From the sequence record NC_048186.1: DNA of 64,000 bases; one strand, written 5' to 3'. The DNA comes from Escherichia phage vB_EcoM_KWBSE43-6. This document shows, one piece after another, positions 1,117-54,052 of the stretch. Every line of letters starts with the position of its first letter. The stretch's first letter is position 1. The translations under genes and the position numbers were made by a program. Under the pieces are notes generated by a model that was given only the letters and a program-made list of their open reading frames with translations, searched no databases and was not told where the DNA came from.

Positions 1117-3873
1117 TTATGCCCCGAGAATACGTTTTGAAATAGCGGCGAAGAAACCCTCTTTGTCTTCTTCAATCGGGTTCTGAGCCACAGGCGTATA
1201 CGTCGCCATCAGATGTTTTAGCAAGTTATGGCAATCGACGCGATACCGGTTATATTTCTTTTGGGTCTGCGAAATAGAACGTGTCCAGCTGATTTCGCAA
1301 TAACCGTTGGTTTTCAGCAATTCATTGATGCTGGAAAACAATTGAATCATACGCGCCTGCCCATGGCGGTATTGGTCAAAGTTCTTTTTGATACTAACAT
1401 GGAAATTTAATTTTTCCATCGCCTCGTTAAGATCTTTGACGCCAGATAATCCTTTCTTGTTCTTACTGATTTCCTTCAGATAATCCCATTCAGTTTCCGG
1501 GATTAATTCAATATTATTCTTATCCAGCTGGGATATTCTATCCTTCAGATAAGCAAACTTTTCTGGGATACCTTCGTGAGATTTGGCCAGAAGTGACTCC
1601 GCATACGGGATACGGTTTATGATACAACGAGTTTGCTTTCTTAATGCTAACAGTTCCCGGGCATTCTTAGATTTGAAAGACGGCATATGGCGTTTCAATA
1701 ACATTTCAAATACCGCATCAATTGGCACGAACACTTCCGGGAACTTTTTCATCATCGGAACCGATTTACGGCGGGCAAGGATGACTTTCTTATGGAAGTT
1801 CATGAACCCAAATATGTTGTTCCCCTCATCGTCCATAGGAGTGTTGTGCATACATTCCAAAATGCTCCGGGCAACGTATTCATTAACACGTTTTCCACGA
1901 ATATCATGGATGCTGTTAGTTCCTGATATCTCAATATAAACAATTTGCTTACCAGAATCAATGATACTGGAGATATCTTCAGCAGATAATTCTTTATCCT
2001 TATAGAAACTGAAACGGAACCCTTCGTATGCAAACATCCCTGGATCTTTTTCGACCGGGGGCTTCACATACTGCATATCATGCATGAAGTAAACTTCACT
2101 TGGCACGAGGATTTCCGAAATAACTTCGTAAAACTTATCGGCAAATACCAAATGGTCAATAGTTGTCTCTTGTTTACCAACCCAAGATTCAAAATAGGAT
2201 TGAAGCTCTTCGTGATTCTTGTATGCGCCTTTATGGTTTTGCAATAAATTGCGATTGGTCAGCAAAGAATCATTGGGCTTAACAACGATAACAACATCAT
2301 GATTATTTCGCGCCGTCCTGATTTTCAGATTACGGGCGCGGCTGGAGTTATCGATAATAATAGCAACAGATTTTTTCTCACCAACCCAACCATAAACGTC
2401 ATTCAGCATGAGTGAATCCTTGGTTTCCCAATACCCGGCATCCCAATATATTTCAAGGTAATAAGGATTCCCGGCAGTACGGAATGGAGCGTCAACATCG
2501 ATGTTACGTTCTATATCAGGGGTGCCGTTGTAAACATATTTCCCTTTGTAGAAGCGGGTATCAGCCGGGAAGTCCCGCTCCATCATTTTGCGGAAACCGC
2601 TACCGAACATGTTGGTGAATTCGTCTTTCTTCATATACAACGCCAGCGGGCCTTTGCTGGACGCCAGGTTGAGTTCGGAAATCTTTTCCTGCATAATTTT
2701 ATTCGCCACTTTCTTGAACTGGCGATTCAGGGTTTCGCGAGTGTACTCATCGTAAGACAAGTCTTCACGAGATGGTGGGACATTAAGCTCACCGAGTTCA
2801 AAGAAGGTATAGGATGTCGGGAACTTTTCCAGAATAGAAGAAACGTCTTGTTCCAGTTGTTCCAGATCAATAGGGTATGACACCCCGCCCATGACCGCAT
2901 AGTGGGTATTCCCCGTCCCCTTCGGCTGGATATAGGTATTCCCCACCCGGTTGTTAAAACTGATGTCTTCCCAATCGAAGTTGTATGAGTGATTCGTGAC
3001 TTTCGGGCGCTCGTTGGGCTTCATAACTTTACCAAGACGGATCAGCTCTTCTTCAAACGCACGGAAACGACTGTTCTTGACCGGGACTTTCACAGACAAA
3101 CCATTCCATTCATCTGTGTCTTCCGGCGCAGGTTCGCGGGTTTCTACGTTTTTTGTCACCAGGTCAACGGTCGGGATACGGTTCCCGTTCAGATACATCA
3201 GGAAGCGATAGATCTTCCCTTCATAGCGGGATTCAACAGTGAATGAATCCGACACAGAGAAAGGTGATTTGGAACCCAGACCGAACGCGCCGATCTGGCC
3301 ATCATCGTCTTCTTTGGTACTGTTGAACAAAGTGGTATAAAGCCCAGGGGAACGGATGATTTCGCCATCTTGGGTTTTAAAGACCAATTGTCCACCATAA
3401 TACGAAGAGAAATCGGGCACACCCAGGACTTCAGAACCTTCTGGGATTTCGTCTTCTTTGACGACCATGTTGCCCGCCAGAAGCACTTCATCTTCACGGG
3501 CCAAAATAGGTTCACCCATGATCTGTTCCAGCGAAAGGCCGATACCCCAGTCTTTGATTTCCAGCCATGGCTCGTAATCGTCCGGGAGATGGACTTCTAC
3601 GGGAATGTTAGAAGGAGCCAGATACTTACTGTACAGTTGGGGCATCGGGGACAGAGAGGCGTAATGAGACGGCATCCAGCGCTGTAAACGGTTACGCATG
3701 TTGTGAGCGTCAATCGCATTACAAACGGTCTCACGAAGCGCCGCCGCTTCTTTATAACGATAAAGGCTGGAGAACAACGTTTCAAATAACTTATCGGTCA
3801 TTTTGACGTTGAACACATTACCAGATATAGATGATGAAGAGCGGACGAAGTGCTCTGACTTGCGCATTTTCAT
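1117..3873 (-). CDS. rIIA: rIIA-like protein (GHKL/HATPase-like N-terminal region)
   Basis: 918-aa ORF; motifs LRETVCNAIDAH and GAFGLGSKSPF match the conserved T4 rIIA ATPase-like motifs as recalled; start ATG at 3873 with weak SD. Confidence 0.75.
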   Translation of the reverse strand: MKMRKSEHFVRSSSSISGNVFNVKMTDKLFETLFSSLYRYKEAAALRETVCNAIDAHNMRNRLQRWMPSHYASLSPMPQLYSKYLAPSNIPVEVHLPDDYEPWLEIKDWGIGLSLEQIMGEPILAREDEVLLAGNMVVKEDEIPEGSEVLGVPDFSSYYGGQLVFKTQDGEIIRSPGLYTTLFNSTKEDDDGQIGAFGLGSKSPFSVSDSFTVESRYEGKIYRFLMYLNGNRIPTVDLVTKNVETREPAPEDTDEWNGLSVKVPVKNSRFRAFEEELIRLGKVMKPNERPKVTNHSYNFDWEDISFNNRVGNTYIQPKGTGNTHYAVMGGVSYPIDLEQLEQDVSSILEKFPTSYTFFELGELNVPPSREDLSYDEYTRETLNRQFKKVANKIMQEKISELNLASSKGPLALYMKKDEFTNMFGSGFRKMMERDFPADTRFYKGKYVYNGTPDIERNIDVDAPFRTAGNPYYLEIYWDAGYWETKDSLMLNDVYGWVGEKKSVAIIIDNSSRARNLKIRTARNNHDVVIVVKPNDSLLTNRNLLQNHKGAYKNHEELQSYFESWVGKQETTIDHLVFADKFYEVISEILVPSEVYFMHDMQYVKPPVEKDPGMFAYEGFRFSFYKDKELSAEDISSIIDSGKQIVYIEISGTNSIHDIRGKRVNEYVARSILECMHNTPMDDEGNNIFGFMNFHKKVILARRKSVPMMKKFPEVFVPIDAVFEMLLKRHMPSFKSKNARELLALRKQTRCIINRIPYAESLLAKSHEGIPEKFAYLKDRISQLDKNNIELIPETEWDYLKEISKNKKGLSGVKDLNEAMEKLNFHVSIKKNFDQYRHGQARMIQLFSSINELLKTNGYCEISWTRSISQTQKKYNRYRVDCHNLLKHLMATYTPVAQNPIEEDKEGFFAAISKRILGA

Positions 3874-3940
3874 AACGAAGAAGTCCTATCAGTTTCAAAG
3901 GGATTACACAGAGGTATGATACGTGAAGGTCGTTCAATTG

Positions 3941-3963
3941 AAAAAGCCCCTGAGAAGGGGCTT
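3941..3963 (-). terminator. rho-independent terminator-like hairpin
   Basis: GC stem (agcccct/aggggct) followed by T-run on the minus strand. Confidence 0.5.
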
Positions 3964-3972
3964 TAGTTCATA

Positions 3973-4314
3973 TTATCCAATGAGTGATGCTCGGAAGTCA
4001 AAGGTCGGGCGCGTCGCCCCCGGTTCCAGCACTTCTTCCAGATAACCGACATATTGTTTGACAACTACAGTCGGCTCGGCACGATTGGGCTTGGTTGCAC
4101 TCAGATCCAGAAGGCTGGAAGCCACCTGCTCTACAACAGTGCGCTTGATCTCAAAATGGTAGCGGCTCCCGAAGGCGGCGATCTTGACTTCATTAATTTT
4201 GAAGTCAGACAATTCACTGCTGTTCAACGTACCGATATTCAATTGTGAGCGCAGATGCTCAACAATGTTAGAATAAATGTACTGCGGTGTGATCAGCTGT
4301 TCAATAGAACTCAT
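3973..4314 (-). CDS. hypothetical protein
   Basis: 113-aa ORF, normal composition, in co-oriented early gene array. Confidence 0.5.
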   Translation of the reverse strand: MSSIEQLITPQYIYSNIVEHLRSQLNIGTLNSSELSDFKINEVKIAAFGSRYHFEIKRTVVEQVASSLLDLSATKPNRAEPTVVVKQYVGYLEEVLEPGATRPTFDFRASLIG

Positions 4315-50473: not shown

Positions 50474-51172
50474 ATGAGACCTTTTCAGAATTATTTTTAC
50501 CATGGTTCACTCCTGAAATATATCCATGTGTTCAACGCTATTATGTCTGACGTTCAGGTGAAAACTGAGCGCGGTCTTATGAAAGTCCCGTTACACATGG
50601 CTATTGGTCGTCGTAATGACCTGAACCGAAATGTCCCAGCGAATGCATTACCATTTGCGACGATGTCTTTCGGTCAATTTGAAATCAATAAACAGGTAAC
50701 GAATTCGTATCACAACAAATTGGCGACTAATACTGCGACGTCTAAGCAACGAATTCCAATCATCATCGACTTTGAATACAATGTGCGTACAAAGAAGATG
50801 AATGAAATGCTTCAGATCCTCGAACAGATTTATTCTGTTTACACTCCTTCAATAGATTGCCAGATAAAGGACAACGAAACGCTCAAGCAGGATCAGGTTG
50901 TGAAGATCCAATTGATGAGCCATACGATGTCAGATAACTGGGAAGGGGATGCTGCTGAATCTCCTCATGTCGATTGTAATTTCATGTTTCAGCTTCATGG
51001 TGCTATCTATGGCTGGGATTATTGGGTTGATGACGGTTCCGGTACTGGTGATCCAAACGTTATCAAGGAAATAATTATCGAAATGTCTACTGATTTGAAT
51101 ACACCGTGGACGGAATTGCCTCTTTGGTTTACTGTTGACAAAGACGGCGTCCACCATCCAGAGGATGATTGA
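50474..51172 (+). CDS. tail completion / sheath stabiliser protein (T4 gp15-like by position)
   Basis: 232-aa ORF between neck genes and terminase. Confidence 0.5.
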   Translation: MRPFQNYFYHGSLLKYIHVFNAIMSDVQVKTERGLMKVPLHMAIGRRNDLNRNVPANALPFATMSFGQFEINKQVTNSYHNKLATNTATSKQRIPIIIDFEYNVRTKKMNEMLQILEQIYSVYTPSIDCQIKDNETLKQDQVVKIQLMSHTMSDNWEGDAAESPHVDCNFMFQLHGAIYGWDYWVDDGSGTGDPNVIKEIIIEMSTDLNTPWTELPLWFTVDKDGVHHPEDD

Positions 51173-51174
51173 TT

Positions 51175-51861
51175 ATGTCTAATATGTCGGAACGTTTGTT
51201 ACAGACCTTAGATGCTGTCTCAGCACGAGATGAGGTTGCTCAAGATGCGATGAAGAAAACCGCATTGAAGCCCGGTGTTGATTATGATGAAGAAACGGGG
51301 GAGTGGTTAGGTGATCCCCCGGAAGGGTATCAAGGATTCGAGATGCCACCATCATTGTCTGAAGTCGCATCAAAAGAATCAAAAGTTCCTGAATACGAGG
51401 ACACTGACGCCACGACTGACTACAAACGTATTCGTGACACCACATATGCTATGCAAGAAGCCACGATGTTCATGATGGGCAAGGCCGCTGAACTCGCCGC
51501 TTCTACAGAGGCTCCTCGTGCATTCAGCGTCTTCCGCGAGCTGGGTGAACTCATGCGTGGTCTCAATAAAGACTTGATGGAAAACCAGAAAACCATCAAG
51601 GATGTTACTCGCGACAAAGAACCGCCGGGACAGACCACCGTTGAGGTTTCTGAAGATGAAAATGGAACGACTACAGTCAAAGTCGGTAAGACTGCTCGTT
51701 CGTCCAGAGATCTTCTCCAGATGATTGAGAAAGTTCGACGTGATGCCGAAGCCAATCGAAATTCTCGCGTCAACCCCGATGAAGAAGTAATTGACGTCGC
51801 GGAAGAACCAAAACAGGAAGATAAGTCAGAGGGCGAGGACAATGGCGTATCCGAAGCGTGA
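51175..51861 (+). CDS. terminase small subunit (T4 gp16-like by position)
   Basis: ORF track start 51169 is a TTG codon; ATG at 51175 with GAGGA SD; acidic C-terminus; immediately upstream of and overlapping the large terminase. Confidence 0.55.
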   Translation: MSNMSERLLQTLDAVSARDEVAQDAMKKTALKPGVDYDEETGEWLGDPPEGYQGFEMPPSLSEVASKESKVPEYEDTDATTDYKRIRDTTYAMQEATMFMMGKAAELAASTEAPRAFSVFRELGELMRGLNKDLMENQKTIKDVTRDKEPPGQTTVEVSEDENGTTTVKVGKTARSSRDLLQMIEKVRRDAEANRNSRVNPDEEVIDVAEEPKQEDKSEGEDNGVSEA

Positions 51862-54052
51862 AGTCGAATATGCCCCGGTCAAGACGGGGTTTAAAATTGA
51901 AGACGTCAAATTGCGTATGGACCAAACGTTCATGCGCAAGCCGACTGTGCGTGCTCCTCGTGTTGAATTAGTCCTTACTGATGAGCAAGAAGATGAATAT
52001 GTCAAGTGTGCCATGGACGCACACTATTTCGCTGCGAACTATTACAAGATCACCACTATCGACCACGGCTTCATCTTGTTCGATATGCATGATTATCAGA
52101 AGCAATTGTTCCATGATTTCCAGGATCATCGATTCAATGCTGTCGTACAGGCTCGTCAGTCTGGTAAATGTGTTCGGGGCGACTCTGAAGTTTATGTTTA
52201 CGATACTCTCAGCCAGGAAGAGTTCTCTATCACCATAGAGGAGCTTCACAGCCGCTTCGAGGACGTTAACCATGCAGAGCCGTTGAATACCATTGGCAAA
52301 CACAATAAGTTCGTAGATAGCCGCTTCGGCAAACGATACTTTGTGAAGTCTGATAGTGGTTGGGTTCCTGTAATAGCAGCACACAAGACAAAAGAATATG
52401 CAGAATATGTGGTAAAAACTGAAAGTGGTCGGACGATTCATGTCGCGGACGAACATCTATTCTTTAATGAATATAATAGTGAGGTTTTCGCCAAAGATCT
52501 GGAAGCCGGGGATGCCATCATGACGCAAGATGGCCTTGAATGTATTTCTGAAATTTGGGAAACCGGCGAATCTCACCACATGTTTGACCTCCAGGTGAAA
52601 TCATCTGAGCAGCGTTATTACACCAATGGGTTCCTGAGCCATAATACGACAGTGGTGGCGGCATTTCTCCTCTGGTACGCGATGTTCAACTCTGACAAAG
52701 AGATCGCGGTTCTTGCGAACAAAGAGAAACAGGCTATTGAAATCCTGGATCGTATTCGTAAAGCATATCAGGACATGCCATTCTTCGTCCAGCAAGGTTG
52801 TGAGAAATTTGGTTCAACCCTGATTGAATTCGAGAACGGTTCGAAGATCTTTGCATACGCGACTTCCTCGGACTCCATCCGTGGTCGTTCTGTATCTCTC
52901 CTGTATGTGGACGAAGTCGCATTCATCGAAAACGACTTTGAATTCTGGGAATCAACTTTCCCGGCGATCGCCCAGGCAGAGACTTCGAAGTGTATCCTCA
53001 CCAGTACACCAAAAGGTCAGCGCGGGCTGTTTTACGACATCGTCACGAAGGCGAACCCAGAACATCCTCAATACAACGACTTCAATCTTACGGAAGTTCC
53101 TTGGTACAGGGTTCCGGCGTACACCAAAGACCCGAATTGGGAATCCAAACAACGTGCCAAACTTGGCGACGCTCGTTTCGATCAGGAATTCGGTATCAAG
53201 TTCCGTGGTTCTGTCGGTTCATTAATACCGTCGAAATGTCTGGACAAGATGACATCCAAGTTGTATCAGGAGCCGAATGAGTTCACCAAAATCTACAAAC
53301 CCTTTGACAAAACCAGAACATATTTTGGTATTGCGGATACAGGCAAAGGGGTTGAGGGGGACTACTCTGTGCTGACCATATTGGACATCACGGAATATCC
53401 TCATACGATTGCAGCCAAATACCGGAACAACACGATACCGCCGATGATGTATGCATACACGATTGCCGATATGTGTACTCAATACGGTGAATGCCCTGTG
53501 CTTGTAGAGACCAACAATGATGTTGGTGGCCAGGTGATCACAATCCTGTATCAAGAAATTGAATATCCGGAAATCGTGTTTACATCAACGGACAATAAGG
53601 GTACTGGTAAGAAGATCGGCGGTCGTCGTCCTGAACCAGGGATCAACACCAACAAGAAAGTTCGCTCTATCGGTTGTGCTAACCTGAAAGCACTTATCGA
53701 AAGAGAGATGTTGGTAATCGAAGACCAGGATACGATTGATGAACTGAGTACGTTCGTGTTTACTGGGACCCGCTATGAGGCCGATCAGGGTTGTCATGAC
53801 GACTGCGTTATGCCACTTGTTTTATATTCATGGGCTGTAAAACAGGAATGGTTCAGTGATTTAACTGATACCAGCATTTCTCGAGATATGCGCGGTCGTA
53901 TGAATGCGATGGAGCAACACCAAGTCCTCCCGTTTGGGGGCAAATTTACTGGTGATACCCCTCATGAAGTACAGCATATGCCGGGCTTTGGGGGTGTGAA
54001 TGTATTTGATGAACGTTCTGGGATGTCAATGGAAGAGTGGTTCAAGAACTGA
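51842..54052 (+). CDS. terminase large subunit (T4 gp17-like) interrupted by a mini-intein
   Basis: Start MAYPKREVEY; Walker A reads RQSGK|C...HN|TTVVAAF, rejoining to RQSGKTTVVA like T4 QLGKTTVVA as recalled; downstream LLYVDEVAFI resembles T4 MIYIEDCAFI. Confidence 0.9.
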   Translation: MAYPKREVEYAPVKTGFKIEDVKLRMDQTFMRKPTVRAPRVELVLTDEQEDEYVKCAMDAHYFAANYYKITTIDHGFILFDMHDYQKQLFHDFQDHRFNAVVQARQSGKCVRGDSEVYVYDTLSQEEFSITIEELHSRFEDVNHAEPLNTIGKHNKFVDSRFGKRYFVKSDSGWVPVIAAHKTKEYAEYVVKTESGRTIHVADEHLFFNEYNSEVFAKDLEAGDAIMTQDGLECISEIWETGESHHMFDLQVKSSEQRYYTNGFLSHNTTVVAAFLLWYAMFNSDKEIAVLANKEKQAIEILDRIRKAYQDMPFFVQQGCEKFGSTLIEFENGSKIFAYATSSDSIRGRSVSLLYVDEVAFIENDFEFWESTFPAIAQAETSKCILTSTPKGQRGLFYDIVTKANPEHPQYNDFNLTEVPWYRVPAYTKDPNWESKQRAKLGDARFDQEFGIKFRGSVGSLIPSKCLDKMTSKLYQEPNEFTKIYKPFDKTRTYFGIADTGKGVEGDYSVLTILDITEYPHTIAAKYRNNTIPPMMYAYTIADMCTQYGECPVLVETNNDVGGQVITILYQEIEYPEIVFTSTDNKGTGKKIGGRRPEPGINTNKKVRSIGCANLKALIEREMLVIEDQDTIDELSTFVFTGTRYEADQGCHDDCVMPLVLYSWAVKQEWFSDLTDTSISRDMRGRMNAMEQHQVLPFGGKFTGDTPHEVQHMPGFGGVNVFDERSGMSMEEWFKN
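52169..52645 (+). mobile_element. mini-intein (159 aa, Hint domain, no endonuclease domain evident) in terminase P-loop
   Basis: Begins with Cys (CVRGDSEV), ends with HN followed by Thr +1 residue; block F-like MFDLQV...YYTNGFLSHN; removal restores the Walker A motif. Confidence 0.8.

Follow-up and report, generated by a model that had tools for sequence, protein, structure and literature searches.

How does a phage package its DNA with a large terminase whose ATP-binding loop is interrupted, within the Walker A motif itself, by 159 additional residues? This question is raised by the terL gene in the 64,000-nt stretch of Escherichia phage vB_EcoM_KWBSE43-6 (NC_048186.1) analyzed here and referred to below as the window, in which a first-pass annotation, made from the sequence alone, had proposed a mini-intein. 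The locus is best explained, with high confidence, by a vertically inherited class-1 mini-intein that is inserted between the Walker A lysine and threonine (RQSGK/TT; here and below, a slash marks the insertion point) and is spliced out of the terminase precursor. The insertion, its homology and fold, the conserved catalytic residues, purifying selection, and the existence of relatives with an empty site were established directly in this work.

The interrupted Walker A motif and its empty-site counterparts

The insert comprises 477 nt encoding 159 aa. Its first codon, TGT for Cys1 (52169-52171), directly follows ...VVQARQSGK, its last two codons, CAT AAT for His-Asn, occupy 52640-52645, and the next codon is ACG for Thr+1 (52646-52648). 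The segment proposed in the first-pass annotation (52169-52645, opening with the Cys after RQSGK, closing with His-Asn, and followed by Thr) is exact to the base. Removal of the insert in silico yields ...VVQARQSGK/TTVVAAFLLWYA, an uninterrupted Walker A P-loop, and the predicted splice-junction peptide of the ligated terminase is ...VVQARQSGKTTVVAAF....

Empty sites were searched for by tblastn with the conceptually spliced protein. Intein-free terminases were found in (i) Erwinia phage Bue1 (Ackermannviridae, Nezavisimistyvirus; 580 aa), with 446 of 577 residues (77%) identical to the spliced protein, (ii) Vibrio phages D494 (580 aa) and YC, with 54-55% identity, (iii) Ralstonia phage RSP15 (578 aa), with 42% identity, and (iv) phage RB51, whose T4-type gp17 (610 aa) shows 32% identity over 86% of its length. 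The four terminases inspected at the sequence level, those of Bue1, D494, RSP15, and RB51, carry a contiguous RQxGK-TT(V/I)VA and thus the reading that the first-pass annotation had expected from deletion of the segment; in Bue1 TerL the sequence is ARQSGKTTVVAAFLLWYA, identical to the predicted ligation product. Aligned with the intein-free homologs, the window insert is a clean indel between the Walker A Lys and Thr, so that the comparison with T4-like terminases proposed in that annotation confirms a precise insertion.

The plus-strand open reading frame (ORF) at 51791-54052 (753 aa) opens at a TTG codon at 51791, inside the small terminase gene terS. The start in annotated relatives (Magnus and others), whose coding sequences (CDSs) are 96-98% identical to the window gene over 2211 nt, is the ATG at 51842, which has GAGGA upstream. 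Translation from this ATG gives a precursor of 736 aa (84.6 kDa), and conceptual splicing gives a terminase of 577 aa (66.2 kDa) and a free intein of 159 aa (18.4 kDa). The first-pass annotation, which had counted the 753-aa ORF as about 150 aa longer than T4 gp17 (610 aa), was right that the protein is longer, but the excess from the ATG is 126 aa. Similarly, its estimate of about 18 kDa for the intein stands, whereas the spliced product is 66.2 rather than about 68 kDa because of the start at 51842. The fair size comparison is that of the spliced protein with intein-free Ackermannviridae terminases of 578-580 aa.

The host protein matches the Pfam profile Terminase_6N (PF03237; E = 4.9e-17, 62.7 bits, cut-off 22) and the PHROG family of terminase large subunits (E = 1e-54), and the match to the nuclease profile PF17289 is borderline (21.7 bits, cut-off 22.6). 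By sequence it is a T4-type large terminase with ATPase and RNaseH-like nuclease domains, and its Walker A motif would be restored by splicing.

Family, fold, and splicing residues of the insert

The insert scores above the cut-off of the NCBIfam model for the intein N-terminal splicing region (TIGR01445; 27.6 bits, cut-off 24.5), and its best single match in a phmmer search against PDB sequences is the gp41-1 intein (E = 0.0027). No PHROGs family was found for the intein alone. A word-indexed protein search with the intein gave only 2 proteins, both free-standing intein entries; it was replaced by an exhaustive search, covering 1.8 billion representative proteins, which returned 776 relatives at E ≤ 1e-3, 368 of them at E ≤ 1e-10. 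The host proteins of these relatives include TerL, DnaB-like helicases, and AAA/ClpB ATPases.

In an alignment of 61 family members (A1), the invariant positions are G64, T74, H96 (block B), D140 (block F), and H158 and N159 (block G), and block B follows the pattern A-D-x-H across the family. Conservation of Cys1 is claimed for phage genomes only: the 22 contiguous metagenomic sequences in A1 were chosen by a 'GKC' pattern and therefore are not evidence for it. At the +1 position relatives have T or S, and the window has Thr. The inspection of intein blocks suggested in the first-pass annotation thus finds C1, His96, Asp140, H158-N159, and Thr+1 in place, but block B reads A-D-E-H, not TxxH. 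The A1 profile matches the solved inteins VidaL (E = 1.1e-13), gp41-1 (1.7e-12), and CatC, a consensus TerL split intein (5.9e-11), as well as Spl DnaX and NrdJ-1; nine solved inteins are found at E ≤ 1e-3.

AlphaFold2 run with A1 predicts one all-beta HINT domain (predicted local distance difference test, pLDDT, 92.6; predicted template modeling score, pTM, 0.86) with a single helix (residues 23-32) and a floppy loop (residues 31-50). In a Foldseek comparison with the PDB, the top 39 matches are all inteins (probability 1.00, template modeling (TM) score up to 0.85), led by the VidaL (best), gp41-1, RecA, DnaB, TFIIB, and RadA mini-inteins; the first non-intein, a BIL2 domain, ranks 40th. The model aligns end to end with mini-inteins of 128-145 aa, and its extra ~20-30 residues are helix alpha1 and the disordered loop. 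The predicted fold is thus a single HINT domain without an endonuclease, and no Pfam profile for a homing endonuclease (LAGLIDADG, HNH, or GIY-YIG) matches within the insert, in agreement with the first-pass annotation. Having no homing endonuclease, the element would be unable to spread by one of its own. From the sequence, the profiles, and the model, we classify the insert as a mini-intein, as had been proposed, and specifically as one of class 1; a chance likeness in the absence of an intein insertion is excluded by the profile, homolog, family-profile, and Foldseek results.

The same searches bear on the possibility of autoprocessing only, as in bacterial intein-like (BIL) or PT-HINT-like domains, where cleavage at one junction and no extein ligation would leave two terminase fragments. 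The insert does match PT-HINT (PF07591; E = 0.069, 13.8 bits, cut-off 27.7) and Hint (E = 0.099), but both matches lie far under the cut-offs and are weaker than those to the intein models. Moreover, neither the +1 nucleophile nor the HN motif is missing, the closest solved structures are true inteins, and a terminase cut within its P-loop would not function, which makes this possibility extremely unlikely.

Table 1. Features of the terL locus in the window
Feature	Position	Strand	Description and evidence
terS (small terminase)	51169-51861 or 51175-51861	+	ORF; position inferred from the Magnus annotation
terL precursor gene (T4-type large terminase with intein)	51842-54052	+	736 codons plus stop; ORF and annotated CDS of relatives
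N-extein	51842-52168	+	109 aa, ends with the first Walker A half RQSGK (52154-52168); translation, alignment to intein-free TerL
Class-1 mini-intein (predicted)	52169-52645	+	159 aa, 18.4 kDa, Cys1...His158-Asn159; sequence, profiles, model; same codons annotated 'intein' in Magnus MN045230
Intein residues 31-50	52259-52318	+	Weakly conserved, low-confidence loop after helix alpha1; pLDDT 56-73, start points of relatives
Block B, A93-D94-E95-H96	52445-52456	+	His invariant; Ala in place of the usual Thr, likewise in VidaL (CAFNH)
Block G, L156-S157-H158-N159	52634-52645	+	Terminal Asn predicted to cyclize, giving free intein; sequence, established intein chemistry
C-extein	52646-54049	+	468 aa: Thr+1, second Walker A half (GK/TT), rest of ATPase, RNaseH-like nuclease; translation, profiles, alignment

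Distribution, selection, and the proposed splicing reaction

The terL region is 96-98% identical at the DNA level to that of ~45 Klebsiella phages of the genus Taipeivirus, family Ackermannviridae (among them phi1_175010, 0507-KN2-1, Menlow, May, Magnus, and UPM2146), and 60-90% identical to that of more than 200 Salmonella, Escherichia, Shigella, Dickeya, Serratia, and Enterobacter Ackermannviridae; the window phage belongs to Taipeivirus. Every sampled enterobacterial Ackermannviridae TerL has the intein at the same codon with C1...HN/T intact, as checked in Magnus, Bestiario, CBA120, RC-2014, phiMAM1, and 3M, and the SD25 TerL intein likewise keeps C1 and T+1. Homologs carrying the segment without splicing residues, the case that the first-pass annotation had set against its own proposal, were not seen among the Ackermannviridae copies examined. 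The record counts roughly agree: ~282 records have a TerL with at least 60% identity and ~277 have an intein with at least 60% identity. Serratia phage 3M, a candidate for an intein-free relative by its one-piece tblastn match, was rejected, as its 735-aa CDS contains the intein. Three phage records bear the names of unrelated hosts, namely MN871475 (Pseudomonas phage Pa-sanjiao), OR844942 (Enterococcus phage Efm 3-10), and MG010123 (Staphylococcus phage SAJK-IND); their terL genes are of the Kuttervirus or T4 type and near-identical to Salmonella and E. coli phage genes, and the entries are probably mislabeled or contaminated.

The intein is under strong purifying selection. In comparisons of the window with Magnus and Bestiario, the ratio of nonsynonymous to synonymous substitution rates (dN/dS) is 0.02-0.06 for the intein versus 0.01-0.04 for the extein. 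In comparisons with CBA120, RC-2014, and phiMAM1, saturation is reached at synonymous sites and the intein dN is about twice the extein dN, with intein amino acid identity still at 70-75%. Base composition is not anomalous, with a GC content of 0.43-0.46 for the intein against 0.45-0.50 for its flanks, and does not point to recent acquisition. The element is a long-standing resident that has been inherited vertically and is functionally constrained, neither a recent invader nor a decaying relic; an essential motif would be destroyed by its imprecise loss, which is why it persists.

This selection acts on the plus-strand frame, which argues against a coding signal on the opposite strand, where an uninterrupted ATG ORF of 162 aa (51968-52456) runs over the junction of the N-extein and the intein. 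The antisense ORF has no Pfam match, and stop codons interrupt it in Magnus, Bestiario, RC-2014, and phiMAM1; we regard it as a chance ORF, and the probability that it is a gene is negligible.

The same distribution might suggest that the insert is a domesticated, inactive HINT domain whose 159 aa stay in the mature terminase in a structural or regulatory role. Its presence, without an endonuclease, in essentially every sampled enterobacterial Ackermannviridae resembles that of a resident domain, and the block B Thr is replaced by Ala. However, the insert parts the Walker A Lys from the Thr, which are contiguous in all intein-free relatives, the residues needed only for splicing (C1, H96, D140, H158, N159, and T+1) are all conserved, and VidaL, a homolog with the same A-x-x-H block, splices. 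We therefore consider retention of an inactive domain very unlikely. Splicing of the homologous VidaL and AceL/GOS-TerL inteins has been demonstrated experimentally, in support of an intein that is spliced out.

For that reaction we infer the following course. Translation would produce the 84.6-kDa precursor, with the ATP-binding loop broken by 159 residues, in which the intein would fold as a HINT domain and bring the two splice junctions together. Splicing would then proceed in four steps: (i) in an N-S acyl shift, Cys1 attacks the peptide bond on its N-terminal side, (ii) the N-extein is moved to the Thr+1 side chain (trans-esterification), (iii) Asn159 cyclizes with the help of His158 and Asp140, and the 18.4-kDa intein is freed, and (iv) an O-N shift forms a normal peptide bond. 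The product would be a 66.2-kDa terminase of 577 aa with an intact P-loop, able to power DNA packaging. The steps are established class-1 intein chemistry, and the residues themselves were verified in the window. Since the Walker A Lys and Thr lie 159 residues apart in the precursor, both ATPase activity and packaging should depend on splicing.

Several points weigh against a spliced intein. The Pfam profile Intein_splicing (PF14890; E = 2.4e-8) gives 34.4 bits, 1.4 below its gathering threshold (GA) of 35.8. Thr is the least common +1 nucleophile in inteins. The block B Thr is absent (Ala93 in A-D-E-H), which is a family-wide trait, and the active VidaL intein has Ala there too. Finally, our literature search found no experiment on splicing of any Ackermannviridae TerL intein, only mentions in genome announcements.

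A further alternative accepts splicing but makes it conditional: if splicing were gated by the redox state of Cys1, temperature, metal ions, or partner binding, the intein would be a post-translational timer of the terminase and would be retained for this reason. Such roles have been proposed in the literature for ATPase-site inteins (PMC5050341), and they fit an intein that is under strong purifying selection along its entire length and is fixed across several genera without an endonuclease. Purifying selection, however, is equally expected without a conditional role, because any splicing defect would be lethal, and the family member Bue1 manages without the intein. We consider a conditional intein unlikely, though more probable than the other alternatives; no specific evidence for it was found in this analysis. 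If true, an intein gated by redox state, temperature, or a partner would delay activation of the packaging ATPase.

Known systems and related elements

The finding is correct but already known, as follows from the annotation of the Magnus genome and from reports on two Salmonella phages, and the novelty implied in the first-pass annotation does not hold. In the record of Klebsiella phage Magnus (MN045230, CPT_Magnus_060), the same codons are a mat_peptide 'intein' within the "terminase large subunit precursor"; gene, insertion point, and length of 159 codons coincide with those in the window, and the amino acid identity is 98.7%. Only a few substitutions set it apart, and it is in effect the window element in a different isolate. 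The Magnus genome announcement states that the large terminase harbors an intein (PMC6763660), and an interruption of the large terminase by an intein was reported for phages Maynard and Marshall in 2013 (PMC3868846, PMC3853055); the Maynard/Marshall intein entry (P0001) is 84% identical to the window intein, in the same gene and at the same insertion point.

Terminase P-loop inteins are a well-studied class. Mycobacteriophage TerL inteins (TerL1-a/b and TerL6-f; Kelley et al. 2016) lie in the ATPase domain, where they group at the P-loop or beside it. Their efficient splicing in reporters (PMC5050341) lends support to the view that packaging requires splicing. They differ from the window intein in belonging to other lineages, several with active homing endonucleases or of class 3, and in their actinobacteriophage hosts. 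The gp41-1 split intein (PDB 6qaz), from cyanophage-like metagenomic DNA, likewise sits in a phage P-loop ATPase, a helicase, and reaches a target-normalized TM score of 0.85, but it is canonically split (long N-terminal part, IntN, and short C-terminal part, IntC), has Ser+1, is only ~18% identical, and interrupts another host protein.

Closer are the HINT domains of AceL-TerL, GOS-TerL, Cat (PDB 6dsl), and VidaL (PDB 6vgv), which are homologous to the window intein. The TerL members of this atypically split group sit in phage large terminases, as does the window intein, and the block B form A/S-x-x-H is common to both. AceL-TerL and the other inteins of this group are encoded by two genes, with an IntN of 16-37 aa and an IntC of ~104-115 aa, and trans-splice with Cys+1, whereas the window intein is contiguous (single ORF, 51842-54052), is predicted to splice in cis, and has Thr+1; it is homologous to the split TerL family, not a member of it. 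Its loop 31-50 coincides with the split site after helix alpha1, described as S2 in atypically split inteins (PMC13014065), and in the model this loop marks the split or insertion site of these relatives. Among the 150 best metagenomic relatives, 114 begin near query residue ~45, with a recurring N-terminal motif ...SDT-x-x-RKF[IV], and are naturally split forms; IntC-first split forms thus dominate the intein family. In five metagenomic relatives (P0014, P0018, P0037, P0054, and P0111), the C-terminal part of the intein is preceded by several hundred additional residues, and P0008 contains a second intein with a LAGLIDADG domain.

Gene order around terL in the window (neck, sheath stabilizer, terS, terL, tail sheath) is as in T4, and the 3' end of terS overlaps the start of terL by 20 nt; a free-standing endonuclease gene is absent from the terS-terL junction of the window. 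In Klebsiella phage Bestiario (locus positions 630-1511) and Dickeya phage RC-2014 (809-1687), a gene for a 293-aa homing endonuclease with a NUMOD3 motif lies between terS and terL. It stands free beside an intein-bearing terL, and both phages are otherwise near-identical to kin that lack it. Trans-acting (collaborative) homing of the endonuclease-less intein is a possibility.

Related arrangements were observed in more distant phages. Agrobacterium jumbo phage Atu_ph07 encodes its TerL in two neighboring genes that differ in frame (locus positions 1983-2354 and 2366-4174), annotated only as two 'terminase large subunit' CDSs. The first ends with ...RQLGK followed by ~42 aa that begin with Ser, and the second opens with an IntC-like segment of 110-120 aa ending in LSHN/TTVAAAYLLW; to judge by sequence, this looks like a naturally, atypically split intein of the GOS-TerL kind that occupies the same P-loop site, here in a phage that has been cultured. 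Delftia phage PhiW-14 (locus positions ~1900-2810) has a homologous intein at the same GK/T site (RQMGK/CVQGDTEI...ASHN/TTTVAAFLLW), but two consecutive in-frame stops occur ~53 residues into it and the annotated gp17 CDS starts inside it; this is either another split intein or a sequencing or annotation problem in the record. The terminase of Campylobacter phage CP220 (locus positions 78-2312), where intein signatures are annotated, contains a related intein with 30% identity whose insertion site in the P-loop is shifted upstream by three residues (...QPRQ/C...SHN/SSKSTT, Ser+1), a neighboring, independent insertion point in the same motif. In Pseudomonas phage Deifobo (locus positions 2411-3682), a 'UvsX-like recombinase' CDS opens with a homologous IntC-like segment that shares 31% identity with residues 64-159 of the window intein. 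A homing-endonuclease gene comes after this CDS, and by sequence the locus looks like a 'fractured gene' arrangement.

The relatives AceL-TerL, GOS-TerL, Cat, VidaL, and gp41-1 are established protein-engineering tools, so the family already supplies the splicing tools that the first-pass annotation had in mind. The one, modest practical interest of the window intein lies in its being contiguous and enterobacterial (37 °C), unlike its cold-adapted, atypically split TerL relatives, which are already used in protein labeling; if it is a mesophilic, Thr+1, cis-splicing counterpart of AceL/GOS-TerL, a cut in loop 31-50 could give a new atypical split intein for 37 °C. For annotation, the gene product is a terminase precursor plus intein, with a mature TerL of 577 aa and an ORF that starts at the ATG at 51842. 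Without opening a new question, the locus adds one more case to a familiar pattern, that of inteins in the P-loops of essential phage ATPases.

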